A stretch of 64,000 nucleotides of DNA from a virus (taxonomy: Duplodnaviria > Heunggongvirae > Uroviricota > Caudoviricetes): the IMG/VR virus record IMGVR_UViG_2703718833_000007, positions 1 to 64,000 of that record; one strand, 5' to 3'. The translations under genes and the position numbers were made by a program. The stretch's first letter is position 1. Every line of letters starts with the position of its first letter. The notes below the pieces were generated by a model. It was not told the DNA's origin. It saw only the letters and a program-made list of their open reading frames with translations, and made no database searches. This document shows, one piece after another, positions 5,625 to 64,000 of this stretch.

Positions 5625-5655
5625 AATGTTACTTCCTCCGGTTTACTATATGTAT

Positions 5656-6426: not shown

Positions 6427-6557
6427 TGTAATTTCTCCGTAAAACGCTCTACAACGCAAAATCCCACCGCGTAACCCATTTGCACAGGTTGCAGTGTCTT
6501 ATTGCGTCAGAGGCGCTTTCAGGTGGCTAATTTTTGATTTACAGACTGGTAGGTAGG

Positions 6558-6659
6558 TTATGGATTGACTAGAAGGAACAAACCGCCGAACAAAGCGACG
6601 TTAACAGCGATTGCCGCAGCGATGGCAAAAGCCAGGGCGAAAACGTGTTTACCGTCCAT
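6558..6659 (-). CDS. small hydrophobic peptide (33 aa)
   Basis: MDGKHVFALAFAIAAAIAVNVALFGGLFLLVNP; GAGAGG RBS 8 nt upstream; below track cutoff. Confidence 0.3.
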   Translation of the reverse strand: MDGKHVFALAFAIAAAIAVNVALFGGLFLLVNP

Positions 6660-6792
6660 TTTAAAATCCTCTCTAAAACGCTCTCTAACGAGCTAAACCG
6701 CTAAAGGTATGCAAGTGTAGCACCCAATGCTTTTTAGCTCGCTGGTGGGCTTGTTTTGTTGGTGATTTTTGATTTTTGCGTATTGTGGTTGG

Positions 6793-7845: not shown

Positions 7846-7848
7846 AGA

Positions 7849-8106
7849 TCATTCCTCCGGCAACATCACTACATAGACATCACTGAATGCATCAAGACGA
7901 CAAACAAATCCTTTATCCATTAATGCGGCGAATGCATCATGTACCGTATGAACAGGAAGTTCACACATTGCGGCTACTTCTTTGCGTGATGCATCATGTA
8001 CCCGTCCTTTGTTATCTGCCTTTTCAGCCAGAGCCATTAAGACAAGTTTTTGAATCGGGCTGTTAAGTTTTACGTTCCATGCTTTGCTAATAATGTTCAT
8101 GCTCAT
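7849..8106 (-). CDS. small DNA-binding protein in Cro/CII position
   Basis: 85 aa; divergent from repressor gene across a 306-bp regulatory region. Confidence 0.4.
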   Translation of the reverse strand: MSMNIISKAWNVKLNSPIQKLVLMALAEKADNKGRVHDASRKEVAAMCELPVHTVHDAFAALMDKGFVCRLDAFSDVYVVMLPEE

Positions 8107-43905: not shown

Positions 43906-44610
43906 ATGCGCAGCATACCTACAGAAATGATTATTGATTCCGTGGATTCCGGAGTCGGCGCGGTAATTGACTTGTTTGAATTGGACCTCACGCCCCTGGG
44001 TGGCGAGGTTATCCGCTTCCATTCCGGCGCGAATGGCTATTACGGCCCGGTTATCTGGAAGGGAGTGGCTTACAACAGCTACCCAATCGAGGTAACTGGC
44101 TTCGAAATGAAAAACGAAGGCGTTTACTCACGCCCACAAATGGTAGTAGCTAACATTGGCGGGCTAATCACTGGGATGAATAACGATTTTAACGACCTTC
44201 GAGGAATGAAGGTTACGCGCCGCCAGGTGGAAGTAAAATACCTTGACGCTATCAACTTCCCCAACGGCAACCCAGATGCAGATCCATCTATTGAGGCTGT
44301 ATCTTTTTACGTCGTTGAGGCGATGAGCGAAGAAACAGCCGACCAGGTGCAATATGAACTATCAACGCCAATTGATGCTGATAAAGCTGTTATCCCTGGG
44401 CGCACAATTCTCGCTGACGTTTGCCAATGGCAGTATCGCGGAGACGGTTGCGGATATAGTGGCGGCCCTGTAGCTACTGATAAAGACGAATCGACCAGCG
44501 ATCCAAAGATGGACAAATGCAGCCACCGCCTAAGCGGTTGCCGTTTGCGTTTCCCGCGCCCGAATCCGTTACCAATTTCATGTTTCCCTGGATCGAGCAA
44601 GGTGGGTTGA
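43906..44610 (+). CDS. minor tail protein L (lambda gpL-like)
   Basis: 234 aa; recalled lambda L similarity including C-terminal Cys cluster. Confidence 0.8.
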   Translation: MRSIPTEMIIDSVDSGVGAVIDLFELDLTPLGGEVIRFHSGANGYYGPVIWKGVAYNSYPIEVTGFEMKNEGVYSRPQMVVANIGGLITGMNNDFNDLRGMKVTRRQVEVKYLDAINFPNGNPDADPSIEAVSFYVVEAMSEETADQVQYELSTPIDADKAVIPGRTILADVCQWQYRGDGCGYSGGPVATDKDESTSDPKMDKCSHRLSGCRLRFPRPNPLPISCFPGSSKVG

Positions 44611-44612
44611 TT

Positions 44613-45344
44613 ATGACGCTTGAAGATAAAATGATTCGCTATGCAGCAGCCCACCCAGAAGAGGAGGTGTGCGGGCTGGTGATAGATAACGATTATTTTT
44701 ACCCATGCTTAAACGTATCTGAAGCGCCGCACAACAGCTTTAAAATCTCGCCTGACGATTATATCAAAGCTGACGAATTAGGCGTTATAACAGCCGTTTT
44801 CCACTCACATACTAATGATTCATTGGTATTGTCAGCACGGGATCGACAACAGCAGGTTATTTCCGGCCTGCCGTGGTTTTTGTGTTCCGGTGGCAGGGTG
44901 AGAAAATTCCGCCCGGTGGCGCACCTGTTAGGCCGTAAATTTGAGCACGGGAAAACGGATTGTTACTCGCTTTTCCGTGACGCCTATCACCTTTGCGGCG
45001 TGGATCTGCCGGACTTTGAGCGCCACGATGGGTGGTGGCTGCGTGGGGAAAACCTGTACATAAAAAACCTGCCATTGAACGGTTTTTACATGGTTGACGC
45101 GCAAAGCATTCAGCCCGGTGACGTGATTATCCGCCAGCCGTTTAAAGGCGCTGACCCATGTCACGCGATGATTTACCTGGGCGACAACACTGTTTTGCAT
45201 CATGACAATGCCGGACTGTTAAGCCGCCGCGAGCAAATGCGGCCAGCTTATGTTAGGCAGACTAATTCAATATGGAGATCTGACAAATGCTCAAATTTAG
45301 ATTTACGGGCAATCTTCGAAGATATTACGGCAAGGTGTGTTTAA
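44613..45344 (+). CDS. tail assembly protein K (MPN/JAB plus NlpC/P60-like)
   Basis: Start ATG 44613; JAMM-like HSHT motif; lambda gpK-like. Confidence 0.75.
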   Translation: MTLEDKMIRYAAAHPEEEVCGLVIDNDYFYPCLNVSEAPHNSFKISPDDYIKADELGVITAVFHSHTNDSLVLSARDRQQQVISGLPWFLCSGGRVRKFRPVAHLLGRKFEHGKTDCYSLFRDAYHLCGVDLPDFERHDGWWLRGENLYIKNLPLNGFYMVDAQSIQPGDVIIRQPFKGADPCHAMIYLGDNTVLHHDNAGLLSRREQMRPAYVRQTNSIWRSDKCSNLDLRAIFEDITARCV

Positions 45345-45817
45345 ACGTTGACACGCCAGCGCAGGGACTTGGCTTGCTGGTTGCGCAGAATCATGAGTTC
45401 AAAAAGGCGTTTTTAAGTACCCCATTGCGCTTGCGGATTGCCGGAAAAGATTATGACGAAAAGACCGCGCCAGCAGCGGTTAATAGTAAATACCCTGACG
45501 GGACTACCGTCATTGTTGCGCCAGTGGTGGAAGGCGGTATTGCAGGAATTGGCGTTGTAGGCTGGATTTTGATCGGTGTTTCGGTTGTTAGCGTTGCGTT
45601 CTCGATCTTTATGTCTCGCAACATGAAGATAAAAACATCAGCAGAAAGTGCACAAGATAACACCATATCTAACAACACATACACCAGCGTTGAAAACAAA
45701 GTGGGCCAGGGTAGACCAGTGCCGATCCTGTTGGGTGAAATGAAAATAGGTTCAAACGTCGGATCGTTAGGCATAGACACAAGTAACAACAAAGACGCCC
45801 TAGACGTTGTAAGTTAA
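45287..45817 (+). CDS. tail assembly protein I (lambda gpI-like)
   Basis: 176 aa with hydrophobic stretch; position before J. Confidence 0.7.
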   Translation: MLKFRFTGNLRRYYGKVCLNVDTPAQGLGLLVAQNHEFKKAFLSTPLRLRIAGKDYDEKTAPAAVNSKYPDGTTVIVAPVVEGGIAGIGVVGWILIGVSVVSVAFSIFMSRNMKIKTSAESAQDNTISNNTYTSVENKVGQGRPVPILLGEMKIGSNVGSLGIDTSNNKDALDVVS

Positions 45818-45830
45818 CAGGAGAAAAGCC

Positions 45831-48800
45831 ATGAGTAGCGGCGGCGGCAAAGCCAAAACACCAACATTATTAAACGATAACCTGTATCATAAACAGTTTT
45901 ATCGTGTTTTAGACATTCTCAGCGAGGGGCCGATATACGGTCCGGTAAACCAGAATGCGCCATTAAACAACGTAATGCTTAATGACACGCCTATCACTGA
46001 CGCAAACGGAAACACATCAATCCCGGGGATTAGTATAGCCTGGCGCAACGGCACGGCTGACCAGTCGCCGATTAATGGTTTTAATGCTATCGAATCAACC
46101 GTTATTGTTAACGCAAAGGTAACTCACGATACACCAATAATCAGGACTGTTTCAGATCCAAACGTTAACCGCGTAAGGCTGAATCTTGGCGTTGATTCTC
46201 TGGTTCAGTCAGATGATAAGGGCAATCAATATAATACATCCGTTATGTTGATGGTTGATGTTAAACCGTCATCATCTTCTACGTGGTCGCAAATTAAAAT
46301 CATTACCATCGGACCAGGTAAACAGAGTGGTGAGTATCTTGAAGCTCATATCATAGATGCACCCAATGAAAAACCGTTTGATATTCGCGTGCGCCGCATA
46401 ACAGCAGATAGCAACAGCGATCTATTGCAGAATGATACGCGATGGAGTAGCTACAGCGAAATCATAGACGATAATCTGTCTTACCCTCACACCGCTGTAG
46501 CTGGCGCCGTAATTGACCATGATCAGTATACTGATACGCCTACCCGTAACTATCACCTTCGCGGGCTGATTGTTGATGTGCCGGACAACTATAACCCTGA
46601 AACGCGCACGTATTCCGGTTTATGGCTTGGTGGATTTAAAAAAGCGTACACCAATAACCCTGCGTGGCTTTTCCGGTATCTGGTTAAAAATGAACGTTTC
46701 GGGCTTGCCCGTCACGCTGGTTACATTGACGTTGATGACGGCGCATTGTATACGCTTTCTCAATACTGTGACCAGTTGGTTAGCGACGGTTACGGCGGCT
46801 TTGAACCTCGCATGACGCTTAATGCTTACATCACGGAGCAAATGAGCGCACGCGACTTGCTGGATAATATTGCTGGCATGTTCCGTGGTATCGCGTTATG
46901 GGATGGGCAACGCCTTACCGTGATGATTGATGCGCCACAGGATCCAATTGCCACCATCACAAACGCAAACGTCGTTGATGGTGTGTTTACTCGCTCAAGT
47001 CTTCCGCTTGCAGAGTGTTACAACGCCGTGATCGTATCATGGACTGACCCGGAAAACGGCTGGGAGCAATCAAAAGAATACGTGGCAGATGATGAATTGA
47101 TCGCCCGCGATGGTTATAACGAAACCACGTTGGAGGCGTTCGGTTGCACGTCACGCGGTCAGGCGTACCGCGCTGGCAAATGGCTGATAGAAACAGCAAA
47201 ACGCGAACCGTCAAAATTCACGTTTAAAATGGCCCGTGACGCAATTCACTTCACCCCCGGGGATATTATCGAGATACTCGACAATAACCGCGCTGGCGCA
47301 CGTTTAGGCGGTCGTATCGTGTCAAACACTGGCAGGGTTATCACTGTCGATAAGGTTGATTCTGAATACATCGCCCCAGGTGACACCATTAGCCTGCTTG
47401 ATAGTGATGGCAAGTTTAAAAAACACCAGATCACTGGGGTTAACGGAAACAAAATCACCCTTGCATCCGCCCCGTCATGGATTCGCAACGGGACTGTTTT
47501 CGCTGTATCAACCAACGCGGCAAAACCCGTATTGTGTCGAATCATCAGCGTAGCAGAAACAGAAAATAACAGCGTGTACACCATCGAGGCTGCGCAGCAT
47601 GATCCGCACAAACAGGCCGTAGTTGATGAAGGCGCGATCTTCGAGGTAAACAACGACACCCTTAATCACTTCCGCGTGCCTAACATTGAAAACCTGAAGG
47701 TGTTAAATGTTGGTTCTGAGACAGTTCAATGCCGCGCGACATGGGAAACACAGACGACAACGCATCGCCTGACCTTTGAGATCCGCGTATATAACGCCGA
47801 AGGCCGCGTGGTGGAAACTTATGAAACCACGAATTACCGCTATGAATTTTATGGCCTCGACGCTGGCAGTTACACGCTTGGTATTCGCGGGCGTAATGAC
47901 ACTGGCATGAAGGGTGCGGAAAGTATTGTGGACCTGGTTATTGGTGTACCATTGGCCCCTGTCGGCGTTAATTGGGTTCCTGGTGTTTTCCAGGCAACAG
48001 TATACCCGATCAGCAAAACAACCATGACCACTGATACAGCATATGAGTTCTATTTCTCAGGTGAAAATCAGATCACAGACCCATCAAAAGTAACCACATT
48101 AGCGCAGTTCACCGGGCGTGGCTACCAATGGACTTTTGGCGGCATGAACACGGGCCATACCTATTACGTTTATGTCCGCACACGTAACGCTTTTGGTGTG
48201 TCAGATTTCGTTGAGGCATCAGGAAAACCAACTGAAAACTTCGATGAAATCAGCGACTACGTGACGAAGGATGTTATGGGGTCAGAACAGTTTAAGGACA
48301 TGATTGGCGACATTAAAGATCTTGGCGACCGCACAGATGTTATTGAAAATGCTACAAATGAACTAAAAACAGCGACCGGCAACCTCAAAACTGCAACTGA
48401 TAATCTGACAAACATAACTGACGATTTAAGAACTGAAACCGACAACCTGACCAACATAACCGAAGATTTAAGAACTGACACTGACAACCTGATCACAGAA
48501 ACAGGATCAATAAAAGCTGATACCGATACGCTAAAAAAAGAAACAGAAGATCTTTATAAAAAAGTTAAGGAAAACGCCGATGATATTGGTCAGCATGAGT
48601 CAAGAATTGACTCATTAGAAGTGTCCAGCGAAAAAGTTGGCAGCGAACTGGCGCAAGCAAAAGCAAGCCTGCAAAACGCGTCACTTGCTCTTATTAATAA
48701 CTCACTTGCACAGACAAACACGCGCGTAACTCTTACCGCTCAGTACAATAAAGGCAGGGCAGAGACCAAAGCGCAAATTGACCGCATTGACAACGTTATC

Positions 48801-51170
48801 GCTGAAGAGAAAAAAGCGACAGCGGAATCACTGGAAACCATCACGGCAGAAATGAACACGATGGATTCTAACCTTAAAGGTCAGATTTCTAACGTGCAGC
48901 GCGCAGTAGCTGACGAGGCCAGCGCCCGCGCTGAAGCTATTAACGGTGTAAATGCCTCAATAAGCAATCTTGATAAGAAAACTGACTCCAGCGTTAACCG
49001 CATTGATCAAGCGATCGCTGACGAGACGAGCGCACGGACTCAAGCCATCAGCGACGTAAATGCAAGTATCTCAACGCTAGACAAGAAAACTGACGCCAGC
49101 GTTAAACGCTTGGATCAGGCAATTGCAGATGAAACCAGTGCAAGAACTGAAGCCATCAGCGGCGTGAATGCCTCAATTTCCACGCTTGATGGCAAAGTTA
49201 CAAGCAATATTAACCGCATTGATAAAGCGATTGCAGACGAAACGAAAGCACGCACCGACGCGATCAGTAGCGTGAATGCAAGTATTAGCACACTTGAAAA
49301 CAATACAGAATCAGAAGTAAGCAGACTGGATCAAGCGGTTGCAGATGAAACCAGTGCCCGCACCCAGGCCATTAGCGACGTTAACGCCTCAATAAGCAAT
49401 CTTGAAAGCAAAACTGACGCGAGCGTTTCCCGTCTTGATAAAGCAATATCAGATGAAACGCAGGCAAGAAGCGACGCAGTAACAGAGGTTAAAGCTAATT
49501 TAACGACGCTTGAAAATAGCACAAACTCCAGTGTTAAGCGCCTTGATCAAGCCATCGCCGACGAATCAAGCGCCAGGGCGCAGGCAATATCAGGCATCAG
49601 CGCTGAACTTGGTATAGTTGAAAAAGATGTTGACAAAAACAGCGACGAAATAAATCAGACTAAAGCAAGTCTGCAAAACGCCTCAATCGCACTTATCAAC
49701 AACTCTATCGCTCAGACCAACACGCGGGTTACTCTTACTGCCCAATATAAGAAAGGTCGCAGAGAAACCAACGCGCAAATTGACCGTATTGACAATGTTG
49801 TAGCAGAGGAGAAAAAAGCCACTGCAGAAGCCATTAGCTCTGTAAACGCATCGATAACCGAACTTGATAAGAAGACAGAAGCAAGCGTTAGCCGCCTTGA
49901 TAGAGCGATTGCAGACGAAACGAGCGCCCGCAGCGAGGCCATCAGCGGTGTGAATGCCTCAATTTCCACGCTTGATGGCAAGGTGACAAGCAACGTAACC
50001 AGGATGGATAAGGCGATTGCAGACGAAACGAAGGCCCGTACTGACGCAATAAGTAGTCTTAACTCATCGCTTACCAGTACGATTAATTCTAAGGTATCAG
50101 AGGCGTCAACGGCACTTTCTACGCATGAAGCATCAAGCGCAGAAAAATTTAGCCAGATCTCTGCGTCTTTCGAATCTGTAAACTCAAGTATTACAGAATG
50201 GTCGCAGGCAATGGCAACGGCTGACGAGGCATTATCAAGCAAAATTGATCAGTTGACAGTAACAGTTAACGGGAACAAAACGGCGATAGAGACGACATCG
50301 AAAGCGTTAACCGACTTCAAAGGTAATGTTGATGCGTCGTACTCTATCAAGCTGGCGACCGACAACAACGGAATGAAATACGCAACAGGTATGTCGCTTG
50401 GCCTCACTGGTGACGGCACTAACTTTCAGTCGCAGTGTATTTTCCTTGTTGACCGTTTCGTGTTAATGACCGCAGCAAACGGCACATATACAACGCCTTT
50501 CTATGTCACCAATGGCGCAATGTATGTAAGAGAAGCGTTTATTAAGGACGGCACTATCAACTCCGCCAAAATAGCTGATCTAATACAGTCAGTTAATTAC
50601 AGCTGGGAAAACGGTACAGGATGGGCGATAAATAAAGACGGTAACGCAGTATTTAACCAGGTAACAGTAAGGGGTACGGTATACGCCACAAACGGTAAAT
50701 TTACTGGTGAGATTCAGGCCACAAGCGGGACGTTTAAAGGGACTGTACAGGCTAACAAATTTGTCGGTGATATTGTGGCTATTCACACTTTCCCTGATTC
50801 CAGCACTGTCTATAACTCAAGCCAGCGTGTAGCGCGTTTCTGTTATCGCTATGTGGACTCAACATCCGAAGAGACTTATAAAAACGTTATGTTCCAGGCA
50901 AGGTTATCAGGGGCTACCAACACATCACAGATCAATGCCTGGATAGCTGGTTCTCAGGTATTGGTTGGTAAGAAATACGGTAACGAAAACTCAAACGGCA
51001 TGTTCTGTTTCGGTATGGATGGTGTAACAAATCAGATTGTCGATGTTGTTATCGAGATCTACACTCCGTGGTCAACAGGTAACAACACTGGGATTACGTT
51101 AAGTTGTCCGACCATGTTTATAGGTCGCAGTAACGGCACATGGTCGAAATGGGAAGAATCACACGACTAA
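45831..51170 (+). CDS. host specificity protein J (central tail fiber), expanded to 1779 aa
   Basis: N-terminal 800 aa collinear with recalled lambda J (e.g. YHLRGLIVDVPDNYNPETRTYSG); large internal coiled-coil repeat insertion; distinct C-terminal domain. Confidence 0.9.
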   Translation: MSSGGGKAKTPTLLNDNLYHKQFYRVLDILSEGPIYGPVNQNAPLNNVMLNDTPITDANGNTSIPGISIAWRNGTADQSPINGFNAIESTVIVNAKVTHDTPIIRTVSDPNVNRVRLNLGVDSLVQSDDKGNQYNTSVMLMVDVKPSSSSTWSQIKIITIGPGKQSGEYLEAHIIDAPNEKPFDIRVRRITADSNSDLLQNDTRWSSYSEIIDDNLSYPHTAVAGAVIDHDQYTDTPTRNYHLRGLIVDVPDNYNPETRTYSGLWLGGFKKAYTNNPAWLFRYLVKNERFGLARHAGYIDVDDGALYTLSQYCDQLVSDGYGGFEPRMTLNAYITEQMSARDLLDNIAGMFRGIALWDGQRLTVMIDAPQDPIATITNANVVDGVFTRSSLPLAECYNAVIVSWTDPENGWEQSKEYVADDELIARDGYNETTLEAFGCTSRGQAYRAGKWLIETAKREPSKFTFKMARDAIHFTPGDIIEILDNNRAGARLGGRIVSNTGRVITVDKVDSEYIAPGDTISLLDSDGKFKKHQITGVNGNKITLASAPSWIRNGTVFAVSTNAAKPVLCRIISVAETENNSVYTIEAAQHDPHKQAVVDEGAIFEVNNDTLNHFRVPNIENLKVLNVGSETVQCRATWETQTTTHRLTFEIRVYNAEGRVVETYETTNYRYEFYGLDAGSYTLGIRGRNDTGMKGAESIVDLVIGVPLAPVGVNWVPGVFQATVYPISKTTMTTDTAYEFYFSGENQITDPSKVTTLAQFTGRGYQWTFGGMNTGHTYYVYVRTRNAFGVSDFVEASGKPTENFDEISDYVTKDVMGSEQFKDMIGDIKDLGDRTDVIENATNELKTATGNLKTATDNLTNITDDLRTETDNLTNITEDLRTDTDNLITETGSIKADTDTLKKETEDLYKKVKENADDIGQHESRIDSLEVSSEKVGSELAQAKASLQNASLALINNSLAQTNTRVTLTAQYNKGRAETKAQIDRIDNVIAEEKKATAESLETITAEMNTMDSNLKGQISNVQRAVADEASARAEAINGVNASISNLDKKTDSSVNRIDQAIADETSARTQAISDVNASISTLDKKTDASVKRLDQAIADETSARTEAISGVNASISTLDGKVTSNINRIDKAIADETKARTDAISSVNASISTLENNTESEVSRLDQAVADETSARTQAISDVNASISNLESKTDASVSRLDKAISDETQARSDAVTEVKANLTTLENSTNSSVKRLDQAIADESSARAQAISGISAELGIVEKDVDKNSDEINQTKASLQNASIALINNSIAQTNTRVTLTAQYKKGRRETNAQIDRIDNVVAEEKKATAEAISSVNASITELDKKTEASVSRLDRAIADETSARSEAISGVNASISTLDGKVTSNVTRMDKAIADETKARTDAISSLNSSLTSTINSKVSEASTALSTHEASSAEKFSQISASFESVNSSITEWSQAMATADEALSSKIDQLTVTVNGNKTAIETTSKALTDFKGNVDASYSIKLATDNNGMKYATGMSLGLTGDGTNFQSQCIFLVDRFVLMTAANGTYTTPFYVTNGAMYVREAFIKDGTINSAKIADLIQSVNYSWENGTGWAINKDGNAVFNQVTVRGTVYATNGKFTGEIQATSGTFKGTVQANKFVGDIVAIHTFPDSSTVYNSSQRVARFCYRYVDSTSEETYKNVMFQARLSGATNTSQINAWIAGSQVLVGKKYGNENSNGMFCFGMDGVTNQIVDVVIEIYTPWSTGNNTGITLSCPTMFIGRSNGTWSKWEESHD
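48350..50160 (+). repeat. in-frame tandem repeat region within J (short heptad-like repeats, then ~9 copies of a 36-aa / 108-bp unit, with an internal diverged duplication)
   Basis: Repeating units VNASIS.LD.KT..SV.R.D.AIADETSAR..AIS; block starting QAKASLQNASLALINNSLAQTNTRVTLTAQY recurs at about 49.65 kb. Confidence 0.7.
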
Positions 51171-51278
51171 TACTAACCCCGCTACGGCGGGGTTTATACA
51201 TATAGTAAACACATATTCGTCTGCGTAATGATAAGGCGTTAAAATAGTATGGTTAATTAACATAATGGAGTCATTGCG

Positions 51279-53216
51279 ATGATTTACACAACTGGAACAA
51301 TTGCCATCAATGGCAACACCGTTACAGGTACGGGAACAGATTTTTCCGCGCCGCTTTCTCTCATCCGTGTAGGTTGCACGCTCATTGCCATCGGCAATCC
51401 GGTGCAGATCTTTACCATTACGGAAATCAAAAACGGTACTGAACTGTCAGTTACGCCAGCGGCTAACCCTGCAATCCCTGCGGGAACAAAATTTAGTATT
51501 CTGCTTTCTGATTCGATCTCAGTTGATGGGCTTGCCCAGGACGTAGCTGAAACGTTGCGCTACTATCAGAGTAAAGAAACAGAAGTAGCGGAAGCGCTTG
51601 AATGGAGTCAGAACCATATAGCAGACAAGATCGGGCTTGGTGCAGATCACCGCGACTGGCCTGATTGCAACGATCCTACTGGTTATATAGGTTTTTGCCG
51701 TGCTGTAGAAGCTGAATCACGTAACTTTCCGTCAATCGCATCTGGCGAAATTTACTTGGTTGGTTGGCTTGCGCGTGGTGACAATGCCGTTATTAACGGC
51801 TGTTTCGTTGGTACAATTAGCCTTTCACTGTACACATACAGATATAACCCAACAGATGGTACGAAAGTATGGACACGACACGCAAGAAAAGATGAGGTAA
51901 GCAGATTGGCCCAGGGTTCTGACGAATCAGCTTTATGGGCCGCAGGAGGGAAGCAAAAATTTGTTCTGTTGGATGGAGGTGATGGGAATACTCTATCTTG
52001 GGGTGTTTGGGATGATGCTGTTAGTCAATGGAGTCCATTAGCAATAGCTCAGGGCGGTACTGGTGCGCTTGATGCTTTAACTGCTAGGAACAATCTAGGG
52101 GTGGGTGTAGGTGACAGTCCTCAATTCAGGGATGTGAATCTATCACGCTCAACAGATGAATCATCTGGCTTGGTATCTGGTGGTATACAAAGTTCCATAC
52201 TTCTGGGATCTGATGGTACTAAGCGTGCAGAAGGTTTATTTTATGTAGAACACCAACAAGATAAACCAACACAAGTAACGCTTTCTGTAAATGGAGCTAA
52301 CGAAGGTTATAAATATTTATGCTTTAATACAATGGGGCAGATTTTAGTAGATACAGCCATTTTCAGATCAAACGGCACTAATCCACTTATTATTAAAAGC
52401 AACACACCAACAATCTTATTCGTTGAAGAGGATCGCCCAAACGGATCACCTTATTACAGCTTAAATTTTGATGATGGTAACTGGCGCATTCAGAAAAGTG
52501 GCAATGGGTATAATGGTGAATATGTAATAAACTACGACTATCAAAAAAATGAAATAGAGGTTCCAAAACTCAAAGCATCAAGAATGAGTATTCTTGGGAC
52601 AGGCAGTAGTTTAGAAATAAATAGCGCTGGAACAGCAGATGAAACGACGTCTATTCAATCATGGGGTAATAGATCTGATCGCTTGTCTGTTTTTGAGGTA
52701 AGTTTAGATACAGGCTATTTATTTTACGCGCAGAAAAATGCTGATAAAAGCATGGTTTTATCAGTCAACGGGAAGATAGAATGCGTGTCATTATCCCAAT
52801 CATCTGACAGGGATCTGAAGGATAACATCAAGATTATCAGTGACGCCACTGAAGCCATCCGTAAAATGAACGGGTACACCTACACGCTTAAAGAAAACGG
52901 CCTGCCTTACGCTGGCGTTATCGCTCAGGAGGTCATGGAGGCAATACCGGAAGCAATAGGGTCGTTCACAAAGTACGGTGAAGAACTGGCAGGCCCGACA
53001 CAAAGCGGTCATGAACTGCGAGAAGAAACCCGTTTCCTTAGCGTTGACTACGCAGCAGTCACTGGTTTACTTGTCCAGGTGGCACGCGAAACAGATAACC
53101 GCGTCACCGAACTTGAAGAGGAAAACGCCAGCCTGCGAGATAACATTGCCGCAATGGATGAGCGTATCGCAAAACTTGAAGCGCTTGTCAGCAAGTTGAC
53201 TGGAAGCGAAAAATAA
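51279..53216 (+). CDS. tail fiber protein with C-terminal intramolecular chaperone (S74-type) domain
   Basis: 645 aa; C-terminal segment DLKDNIKII...GYTYTLKENG...AGVIAQEV typical of self-cleaving chaperone domain; AT-rich middle segment. Confidence 0.7.
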   Translation: MIYTTGTIAINGNTVTGTGTDFSAPLSLIRVGCTLIAIGNPVQIFTITEIKNGTELSVTPAANPAIPAGTKFSILLSDSISVDGLAQDVAETLRYYQSKETEVAEALEWSQNHIADKIGLGADHRDWPDCNDPTGYIGFCRAVEAESRNFPSIASGEIYLVGWLARGDNAVINGCFVGTISLSLYTYRYNPTDGTKVWTRHARKDEVSRLAQGSDESALWAAGGKQKFVLLDGGDGNTLSWGVWDDAVSQWSPLAIAQGGTGALDALTARNNLGVGVGDSPQFRDVNLSRSTDESSGLVSGGIQSSILLGSDGTKRAEGLFYVEHQQDKPTQVTLSVNGANEGYKYLCFNTMGQILVDTAIFRSNGTNPLIIKSNTPTILFVEEDRPNGSPYYSLNFDDGNWRIQKSGNGYNGEYVINYDYQKNEIEVPKLKASRMSILGTGSSLEINSAGTADETTSIQSWGNRSDRLSVFEVSLDTGYLFYAQKNADKSMVLSVNGKIECVSLSQSSDRDLKDNIKIISDATEAIRKMNGYTYTLKENGLPYAGVIAQEVMEAIPEAIGSFTKYGEELAGPTQSGHELREETRFLSVDYAAVTGLLVQVARETDNRVTELEEENASLRDNIAAMDERIAKLEALVSKLTGSEK

Positions 53217-53649: not shown

Positions 53650-54654
<1,005 letters not shown>

Positions 54655-55131: not shown

Positions 55132-56505
55132 GTGACCGCTTTTTCTACCCTGAATGTTTTGCCTCCCGCCCAACTCACGAACCTTAATGAGTTGGGTTAT
55201 TTAACCATGACGCCGGTGCAGGCCGCCGCGCTTCCGGCGATCCTTGCCGGAAAAGATGTTCGCGTGCAGGCGAAAACCGGCAGCGGCAAAACGGCGGCTT
55301 TTGGCCTCGGCTTGTTACAGCAAATTGATGCGTCGCTATTTCAAACCCAGGCTTTAGTGCTGTGTCCTACGCGTGAACTGGCGGATCAGGTGGCAGGTGA
55401 ATTGCGTCGGCTGGCGCGTTTTCTGCCAAATACCAAAATTTTGACGTTGTGCGGTGGTCAACCGTTCGGTATGCAGCGTGATTCGTTGCAACATGCGCCG
55501 CATATTATCGTGGCAACGCCGGGGCGTTTGCTGGATCACCTGCAAAAAGGCACGGTATCACTGGATGCGTTGAATACGCTGGTGATGGATGAGGCCGACC
55601 GCATGCTGGATATGGGATTTAGCGATGCCATTGATGATGTCATCCGTTTTGCGCCTGCATCTCGACAGACGCTTCTGTTTTCGGCAACCTGGCCGGAAGC
55701 CATCGCTGCAATCAGCGGACGAGTGCAACGCGATCCTTTGGCGATTGAAATTGACTCAACAGATGCTTTGCCACCCATTGAACAACAATTTTATGAGACA
55801 TCCAGCAAAGGCAAAATTCCTCTGTTGCAACGGTTATTAAGCTTGCATCAGCCATCCTCTTGCGTGGTGTTTTGCAATACCAAAAAAGATTGCCAGGCTG
55901 TCTGCGACGCGCTGAATGAAGTAGGGCAAAGTGCATTGTCATTACACGGCGATTTGGAGCAACGCGATCGCGATCAGACCCTGGTACGTTTTGCTAACGG
56001 TAGCGCCCGTGTACTGGTCGCGACTGATGTTGCTGCGCGTGGTCTGGATATTAAATCGCTTGAGCTGGTGGTGAACTTTGAGCTGGCGTGGGACCCTGAA
56101 GTTCATGTACATCGCATCGGTCGTACAGCTCGTGCAGGAAATAGCGGTCTGGCGATCAGTTTCTGTGCTCCGGAAGAAGCACAGCGGGCCAATATCATTT
56201 CTGACATGTTGCAGATAAAACTTAACTGGCAAACGCCGCCAGCTAATAGTTCCATTGCGACGCTGGAAGCAGAAATGGCAACGTTGTGTATCGATGGCGG
56301 GAAAAAAGCCAAAATGCGCCCGGGTGATGTATTAGGTGCACTGACAGGAGATATCGGGCTTGATGGCGCAGATATTGGCAAAATCGCCGTGCATCCGGCG
56401 CATGTCTATGTCGCGGTCCGTCAGGCTGTTGCTCATAAAGCATGGAAACAGTTACAGGGCGGGAAGATTAAAGGAAAAACGTGCCGGGTGCGGTTATTAA
56501 AATAA
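55132..56505 (+). CDS. dbpA: ATP-dependent RNA helicase DbpA
   Basis: 457 aa; DEAD-box motifs (GSGKT, DEAD, SAT, HRIGRTAR) and C-terminal RNA-binding domain; GTG start. Confidence 0.9.
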   Translation: MTAFSTLNVLPPAQLTNLNELGYLTMTPVQAAALPAILAGKDVRVQAKTGSGKTAAFGLGLLQQIDASLFQTQALVLCPTRELADQVAGELRRLARFLPNTKILTLCGGQPFGMQRDSLQHAPHIIVATPGRLLDHLQKGTVSLDALNTLVMDEADRMLDMGFSDAIDDVIRFAPASRQTLLFSATWPEAIAAISGRVQRDPLAIEIDSTDALPPIEQQFYETSSKGKIPLLQRLLSLHQPSSCVVFCNTKKDCQAVCDALNEVGQSALSLHGDLEQRDRDQTLVRFANGSARVLVATDVAARGLDIKSLELVVNFELAWDPEVHVHRIGRTARAGNSGLAISFCAPEEAQRANIISDMLQIKLNWQTPPANSSIATLEAEMATLCIDGGKKAKMRPGDVLGALTGDIGLDGADIGKIAVHPAHVYVAVRQAVAHKAWKQLQGGKIKGKTCRVRLLK

Positions 56506-56633
56506 TGAAATGTTGAATTGCCGGGTGCAAGAGTAAACATCTTATTCGGGATTGCCGGATGCGACGCTGGCCGCGTCTTATCCGGCCTCCATAAGAGTAG
56601 CCCGATACGCTTGCGCATCGGGCGCTATCCTGG

Positions 56634-57569
56634 TTATTTCACTTCAACCACATTCAGCCGTAACTCATCCAACTGATTTTCATCTTCTTCTGGCTGCCAG
56701 CACGCCGGTTGTAGTGGGATCTCTTCGCGATCAAACGCCAGATCACCCCCGTTAACCACTTCAGAACCGTGGGTGATGCCTTTGAAATCGAACAGGTTGG
56801 TATCGCACAGATGCGACGGCACCACATTCTGCATCGCGCTGAACATCGTCTCGATACGCCCTGGATAACGTTTATCCCAGTCACGCAACATGTCAGCAAT
56901 CACCTGACGTTGCAGGTTAGGCTGTGAACCGCACAGGTTGCACGGAATAATCGGGAACGCTTTTGCATCGGCAAATCGCTGAATATCTTTCTCGCGGCAG
57001 TAGGCCAGCGGACGAATAACGATATGTTTGCCATCATCGCTCATCAGTTTCGGAGGCATACCTTTCATCTTACCGCCGTAGAACATATTTAAGAACAACG
57101 TTTGCAGGATATCGTCACGATGGTGACCCAACGCGATCTTCGTCGCCCCCAGTTCCGTTGCGGTACGATAAAGGATACCGCGACGAAGGCGAGAACACAG
57201 TGAGCAAGTGGTTTTGCCCTCTGGAATCTTCTCTTTCACGATACCGTAAGTATTCTCTTCAACAATCTTGTACTCAACGCCCAGCTTTTCAAGATACTCG
57301 GGCAGAACGTGTTCCGGGAAGCCCGGTTGCTTTTGATCGAGGTTAACAGCCACCAGCGAAAAATTGATTGGCGCGCTTTGCTGCAAATTGCGCAGAATCT
57401 CCAGCATGGTATAGCTGTCTTTACCCCCGGAGAGGCAAACCATGATGCGATCGCCTTCTTCAATCATATTGAAGTCAGCAATGGCTTCGCCCACGTTACG
57501 ACGCAGACGTTTTTGTAATTTGTTCAGATTGTATTGTTCTTTCTTTGTAATTTGTTGATTTTCTTGCAT
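56634..57569 (-). CDS. ttcA: tRNA 2-thiocytidine biosynthesis protein TtcA
   Basis: 311 aa; PP-loop SGGKDS motif and Cys clusters. Confidence 0.9.
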
Positions 57570-57620
57570 TATTTCAGTTCTCTGGTACTAAATGGGGCAA
57601 ATTGGGGGCAAACTTTGCAA

Positions 57621-58856
57621 CTACGATAACCGCGCATTCAACATGGCTATCTGTTCGTCGTTCATGTCATCAATCCACATACCGTAAATTTCATACACCA
57701 TCTGCGCAGTTTCATGCCCCATTTGGCTGGCTATAAATGCCGGGTTCGCTCCTGCCGTCAACAGCCAGCAGGCAAAAGTATGCCGCGTATGGTACGGATT
57801 ACGGCGGCGAATACCAGCACGTTTTACTGCTGCATTCCACCTTGCCCCCAAACTGCTTACCGAGTAATAAGGTTTTTGTTTTCCGTTACACACCCTGGGC
57901 ATGAAAACAAAATGCAGTTTTTGCTTTTCGGTTCTGCCGTACTCCCGATGATAAAAGGTGATTTCGCTTTTGCGATGATGCCCGGTCAGTTTGTATTGCT
58001 CCTTCAGTGCTTCAAGAGCAGGCTGCAGTAGTGTTACTGTTCGGATCCCGGCATTTGTTTTTGGGGGACCGAACATATCAAGTATCGTCAGGTTTCTTCT
58101 GACATTCACTATTCCCTTTTCGAGATCCACATCCTCCCACGCCAGAGCTGCCAGTTCCCCGTGACGAAGTCCTGAGTAAACGGCAAATTTCCACAAGTTC
58201 TGGCTCTGTCCTTTTTCACTTTCCATTAATGCATTGAATTCTGTTTTAGATAACGGATCAGGCTTTATTCTGTTTCGCTGTAATTTTTTTACTCCTTCAA
58301 ATGGTTTGGTTGATATAAATCCCGACTGATACGCAAAACGCAACAGCGAACAGAGCAGGGCGATATAGTTATCAACTGTGCGCACGGTTCTTCCTTTTTT
58401 GTTGGATCTTGGATTATCCAGGTAAAGCGTTTCTCCATGCAGCAGTTCATTCCGGTAGTTTAAGATATCGCTATAACGAATATGTGATATCGGGGTACTT
58501 TCACAAATTATTATTCTGAGTGTTTTTAATTGTGATTTTGTTTTCTTCATTGTGTATGTTGTTAACTCTGTCTCTTTAATTTTTGTCCAGATATCACAAA
58601 GCTCTCCGAACGTTTTTATGACTCTCGTTGTCACCATTTTTGCCCCAGTGCTGGACTGGGGAAAACGTCTTAAATACTCAAATTCACCGGAGTTTATTTC
58701 ATGAACTATCAGCGCTCTTAAATTTCCGGCCTTTTTAATATTACTGTTTGTAATCTCCCAGCCTTTTAATGTTTCCCGACATCGTTTTCCTCGAAACATG
58801 AACCAGATGCGAATGTATCTACCTCTAATCTCGACACCTGTTGGTAATTTAGACAT
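57621..58856 (-). CDS. intR: Rac prophage tyrosine integrase
   Basis: 411 aa; tyrosine recombinase C-terminal motifs (R...HxxR...Y). Confidence 0.9.
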   Translation of the reverse strand: MSKLPTGVEIRGRYIRIWFMFRGKRCRETLKGWEITNSNIKKAGNLRALIVHEINSGEFEYLRRFPQSSTGAKMVTTRVIKTFGELCDIWTKIKETELTTYTMKKTKSQLKTLRIIICESTPISHIRYSDILNYRNELLHGETLYLDNPRSNKKGRTVRTVDNYIALLCSLLRFAYQSGFISTKPFEGVKKLQRNRIKPDPLSKTEFNALMESEKGQSQNLWKFAVYSGLRHGELAALAWEDVDLEKGIVNVRRNLTILDMFGPPKTNAGIRTVTLLQPALEALKEQYKLTGHHRKSEITFYHREYGRTEKQKLHFVFMPRVCNGKQKPYYSVSSLGARWNAAVKRAGIRRRNPYHTRHTFACWLLTAGANPAFIASQMGHETAQMVYEIYGMWIDDMNDEQIAMLNARLS

Positions 58857-58857
58857 A

Positions 58858-59073
58858 TCATGAGTCTTTGATAAACTGATTTATCTTTGGATAGTTGTAC
58901 CAGATAATCCCTCGTTTGCTGTCTGGCTTACCTAAAGGAGATACTCGTTTGAAGTGGAAGCCCTCCACCCAACAGTTCTGGCGGTATGCTTCAATTTGTC
59001 TGGCCCCCAGACCAGTGCGAAGCATCAGGCCGTATTCAACCATCCACTCTTCATTAAAGATTACTTGTGCCAT
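58858..59073 (-). CDS. xisR: Rac excisionase
   Basis: 71 aa from internal Met [10 protein letters not shown]; directly upstream of intR. Confidence 0.75.
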
Positions 59074-59151
59074 CGCATCACCTCTGGCAGGCGCCAATGT
59101 TAGACTGAAATTGACGCCCGATGTTGATTATTAATAATAAGCTATGAAGTT

Positions 59152-59361
59152 TTAATTTGAATACAATGCAATTCTCGAGGACTGAAGTTTCTCGCAATTA
59201 AAATTTATCAGTTTTACTTTCTGCTCTCTGGAAACGCCTGCTTCTTTTTTACCTGAGAGCATTTTTTCGCATTCTGATTTCGTTAGTTTAGATTTTGAAT
59301 ATCTTGTCCAGTTAGTAGGAGTGCCACCTTCCTTTTCAATAGTGGCGGTAATTTTATACAT
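59152..59361 (-). CDS. rcbA: Rac small protein RcbA-like
   Basis: Track ORF 93 aa; likely 69 aa from MYKITATIEK; assignment from recalled Rac gene order. Confidence 0.5.
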   Translation of the reverse strand: MYKITATIEKEGGTPTNWTRYSKSKLTKSECEKMLSGKKEAGVSREQKVKLINFNCEKLQSSRIALYSN

Positions 59362-59548
59362 GAACACCTCCATTATTATTTCCAGTGGTTCGTTTATTCC
59401 ATCTTTCGAGTGCTTCTTTTTCACCTCCACCATAACCGGTTCGGGATTCGCATCCGTTACACTTCGCTCGGTAATATCCTGAAATGGCTTTCACCGTTAC
59501 TGATGGACAACCACAAAATGGACATGGTTTAACATTGTCATATCTCAT
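59354..59548 (-). CDS. ralR: RalR / Lar (restriction alleviation protein; type I toxin)
   Basis: 64 aa from MRYDNVKPCPFCGC; CxxC...CxxC zinc-ribbon. Confidence 0.7.
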   Translation of the reverse strand: MRYDNVKPCPFCGCPSVTVKAISGYYRAKCNGCESRTGYGGGEKEALERWNKRTTGNNNGGVHV

Positions 59549-59604
59549 AATTTTTCTCATAAAAAATATTTCAAGTTGGCGGTGCATTACACCGCCAGGC
59601 TGAA

Positions 59605-60414
59605 TTATTCCTCTGAATTATCGATTACACTGTATTCCCCGGTTAATACAGAGGAATCTGCAGGATCGATTGTCAGTGGTTCCTTTTCATCCATTGATAC
59701 TGCACGCTGGATCTCAATTGATACGGGCAGATATTTGAACAGGCGACGAATAGCCGTTTTCTTTGCCATTTCTTCCCAGTGAGTTACCCACGGCCCGTTA
59801 TTACCAGCTTTACTCAGGCTGCGCACCAGCTCAATCTGTTTGCGCGTCATAACTTCAAACTGAGTACCTCCGTCTTTCAGTCTTGCGACAGCATAGACGT
59901 GGGTAACCGGGGCATCTTCGTTTTCTCCCGGGCGGTGTATTAACTTTTCATCAAGGCCAAATTCGAAGCTAAACTCGTCACCTTCACGGACAACACGGGC
60001 TGACAGGCTGGCGATTTGACCAGAACGGCGAGCCAGATCAATCATGCCGCGATAGCCAATGATTAGCTGAACGTTCTTTTTACCGCTCTTTTCGTTTTTA
60101 TTACCAAAAGGCAGTAAATATGCATGACCGAGGGCGCTACCTGGCTCAAGTCCGAGCTGTGAACACTGTACGATCGCACTGACAAAACTCATAGTGTCAC
60201 AGTTTCCTAACGCCGGAACTTTACGAATTTCTGTGGTGGCGATACGGATCATACGTTCAGCCGTCATATGGCGTGGAAGAGCTGCTGCCAGTTGCTCTTT
60301 CATTGATGGCTGGTTAATAAAACTAATCACGTCGCTATTTTTAACTGCTGCTGGTGCACGGTTTCCCTGAGTTTTTTGCAGATCGGTTTTTGCGATTGGT
60401 GGTTGCTTAGTCAT
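59605..60414 (-). CDS. recT: RecT single-strand annealing protein
   Basis: 269 aa from MTKQPPIAK; start overlaps recE stop. Confidence 0.9.
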
Positions 60415-63007
60415 TTGCATATTCCTTAGCCCAGCGGGGCAGTGATAATGTCTTAATAGCTGGCCATTCATCGGTATTCAGGCAGTCAGACAGGGTTCGC
60501 AGATTGCGGTGATATTCCTGTTGACCTGCCAGTTTTGCTTCTTCGCCCATCATGAAAATTTCAACCGGATAACGTCCGCATTCAATAGTTGTGCTGGCAA
60601 CCAGAAAAACGAAAGTTGGCTGCACTCCAAACTGTGCTTCATAACCGTCACTGTAGAATGCATCCTGAACGTGATAGCGGTAGTCGTAATAAGCGGTTTT
60701 GAATCGTTGAATATCCGCCGTAGTTTTCACGTCCATGATCCAGTGAAATTCAGGGATAATTTTGTCCGGACGGCACCGACACAAAATTCCTGTTTCAGGA
60801 TCTTCCCAGTAAATTGATGATTCAGCGTGTCCGGCGCTTTCAACAAGCCATTGCCCCAGCGGCAAAGCCATAACGCTTTGATACATGAGTTCAATTTTCC
60901 GGCCTTCTTCCGCAGTGATAACCGTTTTTCCTGTGCTTGCGCATTCCATCAGAAACGCTTTCTCTTCTTCTTTTCCGGCGTTTGTACGGCGGTTAAATTC
61001 AGGTGCTACGATAAAGCGGTTACTGAATTCCTCCGGTTCAAGTACCCGGCAGTGGAAAGCGGTTCCTAAATCGAGCGTTTTTGTCTTTGTGGTGTCCACG
61101 GGGGCATTTTTACGCCACAAATATAGTGCCGGAGTATCAGCAATGTCATCGAGCTGAGACTTACTGACACCGGGACCCGCGTGGTAATTCTCATTCGAAA
61201 TTCCGTAATAAATACCTGGCTCTATGTCTTCTACGATTACGGGATCTGCGACTTCGCCAGTTTCATCACTGCAATCGCGATGCGGATCGCTGCCAGCATT
61301 CTCATTGTGCGGATGTTCAGCGCCTTCCATTTCCTCCGGATCATTTTCCTTAGCTTCAACCTGACTCTCTTCATCGAATGTTTCCTGGTATGTTGCGTCG
61401 CCCATCACCGCACCACAGTCAGGGCAGTTATCCCCGCCAGTCTGGCCGCAGGCATTGCAGGCTATTTCCGGTTCCTGTTGCACTACTGGCTCAGGTTGAT
61501 TCATATCCGGGCTGGTTTTTTCCGTTTCTGGCTGGTTCTGGTACACACAATCGCGAGTCTGGATCCCCTTTACCCATTTCGGATCGTTCGGGTCGCTAAT
61601 TCCGTCAACAAATTCACCACGTGATGCAGCAAGCAATTTATCGGCATCGACAGGATTTTTTGATGGAATGTTTTTCCGGGCTTCATGGAGTTCTGCCCGC
61701 AGTTCCTGATATTTCGCATCAACAGAATTTACCTGTGACTGAGCATCCAGCGGCTGCGTGTCCTGATGATGTTCAGTTGCGTCCGGTTCCATTGTTTCAG
61801 CCTCTCCCTGTTCAACTGCCGTTGTTCCAGATGGTTGCGGTTTTTCTTCATCATCCTGTTTTCCTTCTTCTGTTACTCGCTGCGGCATCGGGGCAGAGGA
61901 GCGACCGCAGGCAATATCCACGATTTCCGGATCAGGGTTGGCATGATCGGTTTCAGTCAGTACTTTGTTCAGATATTCAGTGACGTGCGCGGGGATGACC
62001 TCGATCCCAATTGGTGCTTCTTTTACGGACGCAACCACGATGGCGCGGGAATAATCCAGCCCGCCAGGCATGGTGATGAATTTGTCGCGGAAAACAGAAA
62101 AGGGCGGTTTATTTTCAGCGATAATTTCCTCAATGCGTTTAGCGTGTGCCGGATGAAGGTTATAGATGTCCAGATCCATTGAACGGGCCAGTACGCCAGT
62201 GGCTACGTCGCGCGCCAGTGACGTCAGATCGTGTACGAAACCTTCGCCGCGATCGGTGAGGTTTCCGCCGCCAGCATTAGCACCGGAAGCCGTGCGAGTG
62301 ATGTGTGAAACACGATTACCCTTCATCCACTCTTTTGTCAGCAGTCCTCGATCGGTGTAGTCAGCGTTCAGGTATGCTTCGAAAAAAGCAGTTATCAGTC
62401 CCAGGTTTGAATTACCAGGATTAGGGAAAACTTTGTCAGTGTCACGAACCAGTTTGTGGAGTTCGCGAATTTCCAGCGGGTCGAGCAGGCTGGTTTTGTG
62501 GGAAACAGCCAGGGCAGTAACAGCCGGTAGTTCTTCAGCCCGAGCAATGTGTAATGCCTGGAGTCCGTCGCGTGAAACGTGCGTTACCGGTTTTTCGCTG
62601 CCGTGTTGAGCAAGCCAACGAATGGGCAGTTCCTGGCCAGAAATTGGGAGTAGCATATTCTCCTCAATCTCAGTCATGTCTTCGCCGTTGACGTTGGTAT
62701 TGCCTTGATAGTGAGCGTTGTCTGGTGCTGCTCCCGGTTTTAGTTCCCATGTCATGGAGTCTTTGCTGAGTTGATAGCGTTCACTCCAGGTAAAATCGAT
62801 CTCACCTTCAGCGGGCAGGTCATTAACGACAGGAAAATTCGTGGCAACAGCTTTAAAATAGCTGCTCAGTTTTTTACCTGACTTAACGATCAGGTAGTCC
62901 AGAGTGGCACAGGTCGATTCAAAATCGTTGCTTGCCCACAGGACGACGTCAGGTTCACCGGATGATTTTTTCGCTTTCCGTAACAGGAAGAGTGGTTTTG
63001 TGCTCAT
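60407..63007 (-). CDS. recE: RecE exonuclease VIII
   Basis: 866 aa; followed by recT. Confidence 0.9.
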
Positions 63008-63108
63008 TGTTTTTTAACCTCAACTCAGATTAAAATTCGTTTTGTTCAGTGAATGATCTTGCCGGATACACACTGTTCATAGCCTGCGCCATACGCAGGC
63101 TATTTCTT

Positions 63109-63384
63109 TCAGATTTCACCTTTTAATTTCATTGCAATTAGAGTTGCCAGAAATTCGGCTTTTTTTTCTGCGGGCAGATTCTTTCCGATATGCACCAGGC
63201 ACATTTTTTTGACACCTTCATCAAGTGTTTTTACGTTGCCTGATGGACCATCGATATCAACCACAGTGAATGGGGTTTCTTTATTTTCTGTTTTAATTAC
63301 GTAGCCAATGCGCTTTCCTTCCAGATTCACCTCGTGAACAATGTCATCGGTAGTTACAACAGTGGCTTCATAATTGGTAATCAT
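63109..63384 (-). CDS. racC: RacC
   Basis: 91 aa from MITNYEATVV. Confidence 0.7.
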   Translation of the reverse strand: MITNYEATVVTTDDIVHEVNLEGKRIGYVIKTENKETPFTVVDIDGPSGNVKTLDEGVKKMCLVHIGKNLPAEKKAEFLATLIAMKLKGEI

Positions 63385-63458
63385 GTTTTTCTCCTTAATT
63401 AAGGTTGAGCGAATACCTGCCATTTCTGGCATAAATTCAGTTTCGAATAGTCAATTAA

Positions 63459-63629
63459 TTAAAGTTCATGTGCCATCTGGTCTTTTTCGGCACAAGCTTC
63501 ACTGCAATATTTTCTCGGTTCGTCTTTTGATAAAATCCCGTGCATGAAGTGAAGCATTCTTTCAATAGCTTTGCTTTCTTCAACGTCTTTTTTGCAAAGG
63601 TGGTAAGCACATTTTATTTTCTTAGTCAT
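63459..63629 (-). CDS. ydaE: YdaE-like small Cys-rich protein (56 aa)
   Basis: [56 protein letters not shown]; below track cutoff. Confidence 0.55.
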   Translation of the reverse strand: MTKKIKCAYHLCKKDVEESKAIERMLHFMHGILSKDEPRKYCSEACAEKDQMAHEL

Positions 63630-63850
63630 CACCATGACTCCGCCTTTACAGGTAAACCATCACGACCGAGGAAGACTTTAATCATGCGGTCAGTAATGCA
63701 TGTTTTTGTGGTCAGGTTACGAATATATAGTTTTCGCTTTTTAATATTGTTTGCCGAGGCAATATATGTCCGGCCTTCATGAAGAACATAATCGCCAGGA
63801 GTCACACACTGACGTGGTATTTCATCAGTTCCGAAGTGATGTGCAATCAT
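63629..63850 (-). CDS. kilR: KilR (Rac killing protein, cell-division inhibitor)
   Basis: 73 aa from [10 protein letters not shown]. Confidence 0.7.
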
Positions 63851-64000
63851 AATTATCTCCATTTTTACAAATGAACTTTGTTGATGCGGTGCCTGGTGCC
63901 TCCAGGTGACTGCAACCAGTTAACAATTACAGTCGGCTTTCCCACCCAAACCAATAAGGACTAACATGACTTTTAACTGTGCCACGTGCGCTTAGCCGCA

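Follow-up and report, generated by a model that had tools for sequence, protein, structure and literature searches.

In the central tail fibre gpJ of phage lambda (PDB 8iyk, 8xck, 8xcj), an alpha-helical shaft (AHS) at residues 809–861 lies between the FNIII domains and a beta-prism named CSF, and the receptor-binding domain follows (PMC11101478). F-type pyocins (F2: PDB 25vf, PMC13455828; F7: PMC12874032) likewise have a long three-stranded helical shaft between FNIII and beta-prism, and a fold switch of this shaft has been shown only for F7. The mEpimmI phages have J proteins that vary in size and contain "repeats of different length (positions 950-1,475)" (PMC11893012, 2025); the phenomenon is therefore on record, though it has not been dissected. 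Here, we describe the J protein, of 1779 amino acids (aa), encoded at positions 45831–51170 on the plus strand of a stretch of viral DNA of 64,000 nucleotides (nt), positions 1 to 64,000 of the IMG/VR record IMGVR_UViG_2703718833_000007, which is referred to as the window. A long repetitive segment of this protein is very probably a length-variable, trimeric coiled-coil stalk, that is, an expanded AHS of the central tail fibre. An earlier note, made from the letters of the window alone, had pointed to the repeats and implied their novelty. That was overstated, as the repeats of mEpimmI J proteins are noted in PMC11893012; the feature is an ordinary, previously noted property of the group, and the window holds a new allele. 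New here are the map of the repeat modules, a clean recombination event, a mosaic receptor-binding end, the finding that an assembly artefact is unlikely, and a motif that links the repeats to fold-switching fibres.

On nucleotide comparison, the window phage is placed as an Escherichia coli prophage of the mEpimmI (mEp021-like) group. Window positions 1–8000 share 89–91% nt identity with mEp515, mEp010, mEp044, mEp021, and mEp554, and J and its neighbours are syntenic in them. The J protein resembles those of mEp021, mEp044, mEp554, mEp010, mEp013, and mEp515 in sequence (69–85% protein identity), in the gene order L-K-I-J, and in the order of its h, Q, and R repeat modules. It differs in its own unit count, which among the relatives examined is common only to the MIN12 genome, and in a receptor-binding domain unlike those of these six characterised phages. 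The best nucleotide identity of window J to any complete E. coli genome is 88%. Lambda gpJ shares the order FNIII, AHS, CSF, and receptor-binding domain with window J, but its AHS has about 53 residues versus about 630, and the two receptor-binding domains are unrelated in sequence. The F-type pyocin shafts, by contrast, are three to four times shorter and lack near-regular 36-aa tandem units.

Domains and repeat modules of J

The J gene is a single intact open reading frame (ORF), uninterrupted over 5.3 kb, and directly follows the tail-tip genes L, K (NlpC/P60 and JAB), and I, as in lambda-type phages. PHROGs assigns it to phrog_31, central tail fiber J. Five Pfam domains, all above gathering scores, occur in the order of lambda J: FNIII-A_GpJ (aa 88–214), Phage-tail_3 (aa 335–493), Ig_J (aa 609–707), Ig_J_second (aa 709–811), and Phage_Tail_Tip (aa 1485–1623, E 2.6e-40). 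Pfam gave zero above-threshold matches within aa 812–1484. The conserved hub and FNIII/Ig part (aa 1–811, 45831–48263) matches 8iyk_J in PDB with E 3e-185. In blastp, aa 1–849 align with residues 1–856 of lambda J at 38% identity, which agrees with the earlier observation that about 800 N-terminal residues track lambda J, and aa 1–824 align with residues 1–821 of J of ES18 at 65%. Similarity restarts at aa 1482 for lambda (aa 1482–1666 with lambda 841–1020) and at about aa 1367 for ES18. From the gap in these alignments, window J has about 630 extra residues (~1.9 kb); ordinary J proteins have 1051–1132 aa. The expansion of about 1.8 kb that had been placed at 48350–50160 covers the repetitive core of this segment. 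With the NCBIfam model lambda_TipJ (NF049904), J scored 725.9 bits against a curated cut-off of 1950, and on these comparisons we class it as a J-family protein and not as an equivalent of lambda J.

Three module types can be distinguished at the protein level, namely a 14-aa h unit, a 60-aa Q block, and a 36-aa R unit, and the layout in window J is h3-Q-R6-Q-R2. The start of the shaft (aa 812–941, 48264–48653) is predicted by AlphaFold2 (AF2) as a helix (aa 819–927) followed by a loop (aa 928–942). It contains three copies of the h unit, TDNLTNITDDLRTE, each of two heptads (aa 842–883, 48354–48479), where Tandem Repeats Finder reported a 42-nt period with 2.5 copies at 48389–48492 (85% matches). 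These are the short heptad-like repeats seen before. The Q block, QAKASLQNAS...EEKKATAE, occurs at aa 942–1001 (48654–48833) and again at aa 1276–1335 (49656–49835), with an offset of 1002 nt and 77% nt and 85% aa identity. The repeat search recovered it as a 168-nt pair at 48660–48827 and 49662–49829 with 79% identity at the same spacing. The earlier note was right that this block recurs, but its size is about 60 aa (180 nt) and not 170 aa. As both Q copies are followed by R-type units, in-register similarity continues past the core at a weaker level, up to about 134 aa (65% nt).

The consensus of the R unit is VNASISTLDxKTxSSVxRLDQAIADETSARTxAISx. Downstream of the first Q block, a degenerate R-like unit (aa 1004–1039, 48840–48947; profile match at aa 1006–1038, 22 bits) is followed by array 1, which consists of six full 36-aa (108-nt) units at aa 1040–1255 (48948–49595), of types A, A, B, C, D, and E, and is predicted as continuous helix. 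A 20-aa linker (49596–49655) leads to the second Q block, after which array 2 holds two full units of types F and B (aa 1338–1409, 49842–50057). All eight full units match a 36-aa profile with E values of 1e-21 to 1e-24 each, and further degenerate matches lie at aa 978–999 and 1312–1337; the previous estimate of about nine units was a fair one. At the nucleotide level, Tandem Repeats Finder detected the 108-nt period at 48931–49186, and the repeat search detected a 108-nt-spaced family from 48909 to 50065. The final part of the shaft, aa 1410–1484 (50058–50282), is not repetitive and runs into the beta part of the protein, according to AF2 with a multiple sequence alignment (MSA) and to a match with the F2 pyocin.

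The repeat units appear to be old and diverged. In pairwise comparison, R units share on average 65% of their nucleotides and likewise 65% of their residues (nucleotide range 52–84%), and only 45% of the residues that are identical between units have identical codons. The B unit of array 2 and the third unit of array 1 share 84% nt and 92% aa identity. Synonymous divergence is heavy while residues are conserved, which means that the protein is under purifying selection. No exact repeat within window J is longer than 32 nt, and the one of this length links 49164 and 49950; this and the range of identities rule out recent slippage of identical units. The coding strand has a strong excess of A over T (AT skew of 0.30 at 48001–50000; 651 A versus 328 T in 48351–50159), because the repeats are rich in Lys, Asn, Asp, Glu, Thr, Ser, and Ala.

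Shaft structure and length variation

Structure prediction of the repeat region yielded a near-continuous helix. With a single sequence, AF2 predicted helices at aa 819–927, 943–1296, and 1303–1502 of the segment 812–1534, followed by strands. With an alignment of 27 sequences, aa 1329–1473 were helical at a predicted local distance difference test score (pLDDT) of about 95, and beta domains followed. In the spectrum of hydrophobicity, the h part peaks at a period of 3.52 residues and the R arrays at one of 3.60 residues (36/10), with no such peak in aa 1–800. Continuous helix and a/d-type hydrophobic periodicity, the marks of a coiled-coil AHS, are therefore both present. The two periods fit a left-handed coiled coil that passes into a nearly straight bundle of mixed heptads and hendecads. 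Weak, sub-threshold matches to SMC/Rad50 coiled-coil arms start at aa 827 in NCBIfam. A sequence search of the PDB aligned aa 1328–1500, which is only the last quarter of the shaft, with residues 913–1082 of the F2 pyocin fibre (E 1.3e-6), and this region of the pyocin is a solved three-stranded coiled-coil AHS (PMC13455828). The coiled-coil character proposed in the earlier note is borne out by the predicted helix, the periodicity, the SMC/Rad50 matches, and the homology to the pyocin shaft.

That note also described the repeats as an insertion ahead of the receptor-binding C-terminus. Pfam and blastp confirm the location, but the segment begins in a helix that aligns with the lambda AHS, and the helix in which it ends is a homologue of the pyocin AHS. 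It is therefore an expansion of an element that belongs to J, about twelve-fold, and a foreign insertion is ruled out. In the proposed mechanism, nested tandem duplications of h, Q, and R modules would have lengthened a lambda-type AHS of about 50 residues to about 630. The product would most likely be a three-stranded coiled coil that is left-handed along the heptads and runs almost straight through the R arrays; from the structures of lambda gpJ and the pyocins, we infer that three parallel chains share one bundle. At about 0.15 nm per residue, such a stalk could carry the tail-tip domain and the exchangeable receptor-binding domain up to about 90 nm beyond the tail tip. A plausible benefit of this length would be reach through O-antigen or capsule to outer-membrane proteins.

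Annotated phage and E. coli records were used to compare copy numbers, and J was compared in 16 relatives (seven phages and nine E. coli prophages). All have the same modules in a conserved order, and the numbers vary (h1–4, Q1–2, R1–12), with J proteins of 1393–1935 aa. The unit types read AABCDE-Q-FB in the window, AABCDE-Q-FICB in mEp044 and mEp021, ADE-Q-FACB in mEp010, and AAB in mEp515. The layout h3-Q-R6-Q-R2 was found in one of the examined relatives, the independent complete genome MIN12 (J of 1777 aa), and the duplication of the Q block is present in at least 10 other phages and prophages. Queries with the repeat region and with the C-terminal part against a set of 5.8 billion proteins hit mainly truncated, "partial" entries and few of full length, and these yielded no copy-number data. 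Most of the matching database proteins (P0003–P0014, P0032–P0044) are labelled "partial" and start or end in or near the repeats. This suggests contig breaks in the J gene in short-read assemblies, caused by the repeats or by J genes common to co-resident prophages.

One recombination event can be read exactly. The J gene of mEp515 equals that of mEp021 minus exactly 1002 nt (334 residues), with zero mismatches in the first 3395 nt and none past mEp515 position 3390 in an alignment from the 3' end. At the junction is an exact repeat of 35 nt that both B-type units have in common, longer than any other exact repeat in the gene. The arrays therefore gain or lose length through unequal homologous recombination, which would be rare and occur at short identical patches. 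Because the modules keep short stretches of nucleotide identity, such recombination could add or remove whole units in frame and so generate a natural length series among related phages. The proneness to slippage suggested in the earlier note holds in this form, in view of the 16 relatives and the mEp515 deletion, and not as slippage of identical units in the recent past.

Several points weigh against a long, functionally important stalk. The phages mEp021 and mEp515 are both viable and both require OmpA (PMC11893012), and a third of the shaft is therefore dispensable on K-12; as mEp515 tolerates the loss of 334 residues there, length is not essential in the laboratory and is of unproven adaptive value. 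Confidence in the single-sequence AF2 model is only moderate (mean pLDDT of 62, predicted template modelling score of 0.21), and as a monomer this model is silent on oligomeric state and supercoiling. The published description of the group by transmission electron microscopy (tails of about 130 nm) mentions no long terminal fibre, and the mEpimmI group is without an experimental structure or a measurement of fibre length.

The motif is also found in other proteins. When the 36-aa profile was compared with 1.84 billion representative proteins, only 47 representative clusters matched at E <= 0.001. Several of these clusters are represented by other large, fibre-like metagenomic proteins (P0052–P0067; 780–1920 aa), which carry the same "...RLDQAIADE.SAR..AIS" motif in tandem, in 5–14 copies with periods of 18, 33, 35, 36, 40, or 47 aa. 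Examples are P0054 (18 aa, about 14 copies), P0057 and P0058 (40 aa, near-identical units), and P0067 (35 aa). These are different proteins with less than 50% identity, and their arrays look like independent expansions of the same helical motif, which would make this a recurrent theme.

Alternative readings of the repeats

A fold switch would extend the stalk model and does not exclude it. The coiled coil of the Q/R shaft (aa ~943–1480) might be metastable and act as a spring or winch, by turning into a beta-prism once the receptor is bound. A shorter fibre, an opened tail tip, and help in breaching the envelope would result from the switch, and the number of repeats would tune its stroke or stored energy. 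We consider this a tentative idea with the odds against it. Its precedent is the central fibre of the F7 pyocin, in which a segment of 163 residues was shown to turn from a coiled coil into a beta-prism, and in which the strands carry the motif SxSxxMxxLxS with a direction that alternates strand by strand (preprint, PMC12874032). In window J, each 36-aa unit contains one reverse match (ASVKRLDQAIA, positions 14–24) and one forward match (ARTEAISGVNA, positions 29–3). Reverse and forward matches alternate from aa 950 to 1402, and the motif also fits the Q blocks. Across 17 phages with 74 unique units, the six "S" positions hold only A, S, T, or G (A3 and A29 are invariant, and A22 is present in 72 of the 74), the "L" positions only V or I, and the "M" positions only L, I, V, or M. 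The region has 38 motif matches versus 9.3 +/- 3.0 in shuffled sequences. However, with redundancy removed the enrichment is modest (P ~0.01–0.07 for the Q block and one R unit) and is not significant for the tail and the heptad part.

The architecture can be read in the same two ways. The homology of aa 1328–1500 to the F2 pyocin covers the corresponding region of the pyocin shaft, and the layout parallels F7, with about 116 residues ahead of the Q block (104 in the F7 "spine"), then a shaft, and then a beta-prism domain. Nevertheless, AF2 gave only helix in both the single-sequence and the 27-sequence runs, although monomer mode and a shallow MSA are no fair test. In lambda, only residues 841–861 change to strands (PMC11101478), and the preprint itself states that lambda and T5 lack the extensive switch (PMC12874032). 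The motif comes from one preprint and may merely mark this family of helical shafts. In the most specific version, which we hold to be doubtful at roughly one chance in a few, each 36-aa unit would form one beta-hairpin of the post-binding prism, and a coil of about 540 residues (~80 nm) would shrink to about 15 nm and so pull the tail tip down to the outer membrane. Reach and stroke might then be adjusted, through recombination between repeats, to how thick the surface layers of the host are. The J proteins of mEp021 and mEp515, which differ only by the 334-residue deletion, are a ready natural test pair. If the switch is real, the mEp021-like group would be a natural allelic series for the effect of coiled-coil-to-prism length on infection.

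It is improbable that the shaft serves mainly to bind side fibres or accessory proteins, with the extra repeats as added docking sites. In the F2 pyocin, three side-fibre trimers do bind at a Gly kink of the AHS (PMC13455828), the gene directly downstream of J encodes a side tail fibre, and Gly is the last residue (position 36) of most R units, 40 of 74. However, AF2 shows the arrays without kinks, Ur-lambda attaches its side fibres via a collar at the gpV/gpM junction and not to the J shaft, and no likeness of the N-terminus of the downstream fibre to a pyocin side fibre was tested or seen.

An origin of the repeat count or the internal duplication in mis-assembly, by collapse or expansion of repetitive reads, is very improbable: many homologues of J are "partial" at contig ends, which marks the gene as hard for short-read assemblers, and the complete-genome collection lacks the exact window sequence and so offers no cross-check, but the ORF is intact, the divergence of the units and the shortness of the longest exact repeat make collapse unlikely, MIN12 has the same architecture independently, and the Q duplication recurs in the other phages and prophages named above.

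The repeats also produce an open frame of 176 aa on the minus strand (49712–50242). It is ruled out as a gene, as it is a Leu/Ser/Ala/Val-rich, low-complexity mirror of the repeats whose extent is not conserved in close relatives; this is the artefact that the earlier note took it for. Its length and position vary among relatives, and in MIN12 the open stretch is 115–116 aa despite the same repeat layout. The frame is open because the strong A-over-T skew of the coding strand leaves few stop trinucleotides there. In the GenBank records of mEp044, mEp515, and mEp554, a minus-strand Rho-independent terminator (ARNold) is annotated within the J repeats (L001 6185–6231, L003 6189–6227, L004 4689–4727), and this is probably a spurious match in repetitive sequence.

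Receptor-binding end, neighbouring genes and implications

Beyond the shaft, the tail-tip fibre domain (Phage_Tail_Tip, aa 1485–1623, 50283–50699) is the counterpart of the lambda CSF beta-prism by Pfam, by blastp, and by Foldseek, in which the C-terminal beta domains match best to the central fibre gpJ of lambda, in both the closed and the open state (8xck, 8xcj, 9wca). The receptor-binding domain follows at aa 1626–1779 (50706–51167). The last 154 residues of J are 93.5% identical to those of KKa019 J, which has a single R unit, and 69% identical to those of STEC308 J. Identity is only 22–35% to the LamB-using phages mEp010, mEp013, mEp044, and mEp554, and likewise 22–35% to MIN12, and no match was obtained for these residues in the OmpA-using mEp021 and mEp515. 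The domain is of a different type from those of the characterised LamB- and OmpA-using relatives, and these values do not allow the receptor to be deduced from them.

Nucleotide similarity to MIN12 and N921 ends at gene position 4856, a boundary just after the tail-tip domain. A recombination breakpoint lies at this border between the tail-tip and receptor-binding domains (window 50686–51167, J aa ~1619–1779), with a stalk nearest to MIN12 and N921 and a receptor-binding domain nearest to KKa019. As the same receptor-binding type occurs on a one-unit stalk in KKa019 and on an eight-unit stalk in the window, stalk length and receptor type assort independently. Most relatives have a small minus-strand gene of about 249 nt between J and the side-fibre gene (L001 8519–8891, L010 7866–8114), described as a lipoprotein/exclusion-type gene in the mEpimmI paper (PMC11893012). 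In the window, only a gap of 108 nt (51171–51278) follows J, as it does in KKa019 and STEC308, which have the same receptor-binding type.

Upstream of J, the tail-tip ORFs L, K, and I are located at 43906–44610, 44517–45344, and 45287–45817. K contains the Pfam domains NLPC_P60 and Prok-JAB, and annotated relatives show the identical order L-K-I-J. The K ORF as called by the program (275 aa) overlaps L by 94 nt; in RefSeq relatives, K is a 732-nt gene that starts just past L, and the true start in the window is therefore probably near 44613. A putative HNH endonuclease gene of 567 nt separates I from J in mEp021 and mEp515 (L002 2442–3008, L003 2442–3008). Neither the window, in which I extends to 45817 and J begins at 45831, nor the other relatives have this gene. 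Downstream, the side tail fibre gene (51279–53216) encodes 645 aa with a C-terminal Peptidase_S74 intramolecular chaperone domain (aa 509–559). Relatives have quite different fibres at this position, of 1.8 to more than 3.4 kb and of the "head spike fiber" or "pyocin knob" types.

The ORF at 53671–54654 encodes a CorA-family transporter, which puts the end of the prophage near 53.2–53.7 kb. Window positions 56000–64000 are E. coli chromosome, with 99.9% identity to ttcA, dbpA, and the Rac prophage (intR, recT, recE). The prophage thus adjoins host genes (the transporter gene, dbpA, and ttcA) and then Rac, which places two prophages within a few kb.

For gene annotation, models of J genes that lie at contig ends call for caution, as many homologues in the databases are truncated there. 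For the biology of these phages, the length of the central fibre sets the reach of a siphophage through O-antigen or capsule to its outer-membrane receptor. Here, this length would be set by recombining modules and decoupled from the receptor-binding domain. The same modules account for the variable size of J in these phages, a group that is common in the human gut.

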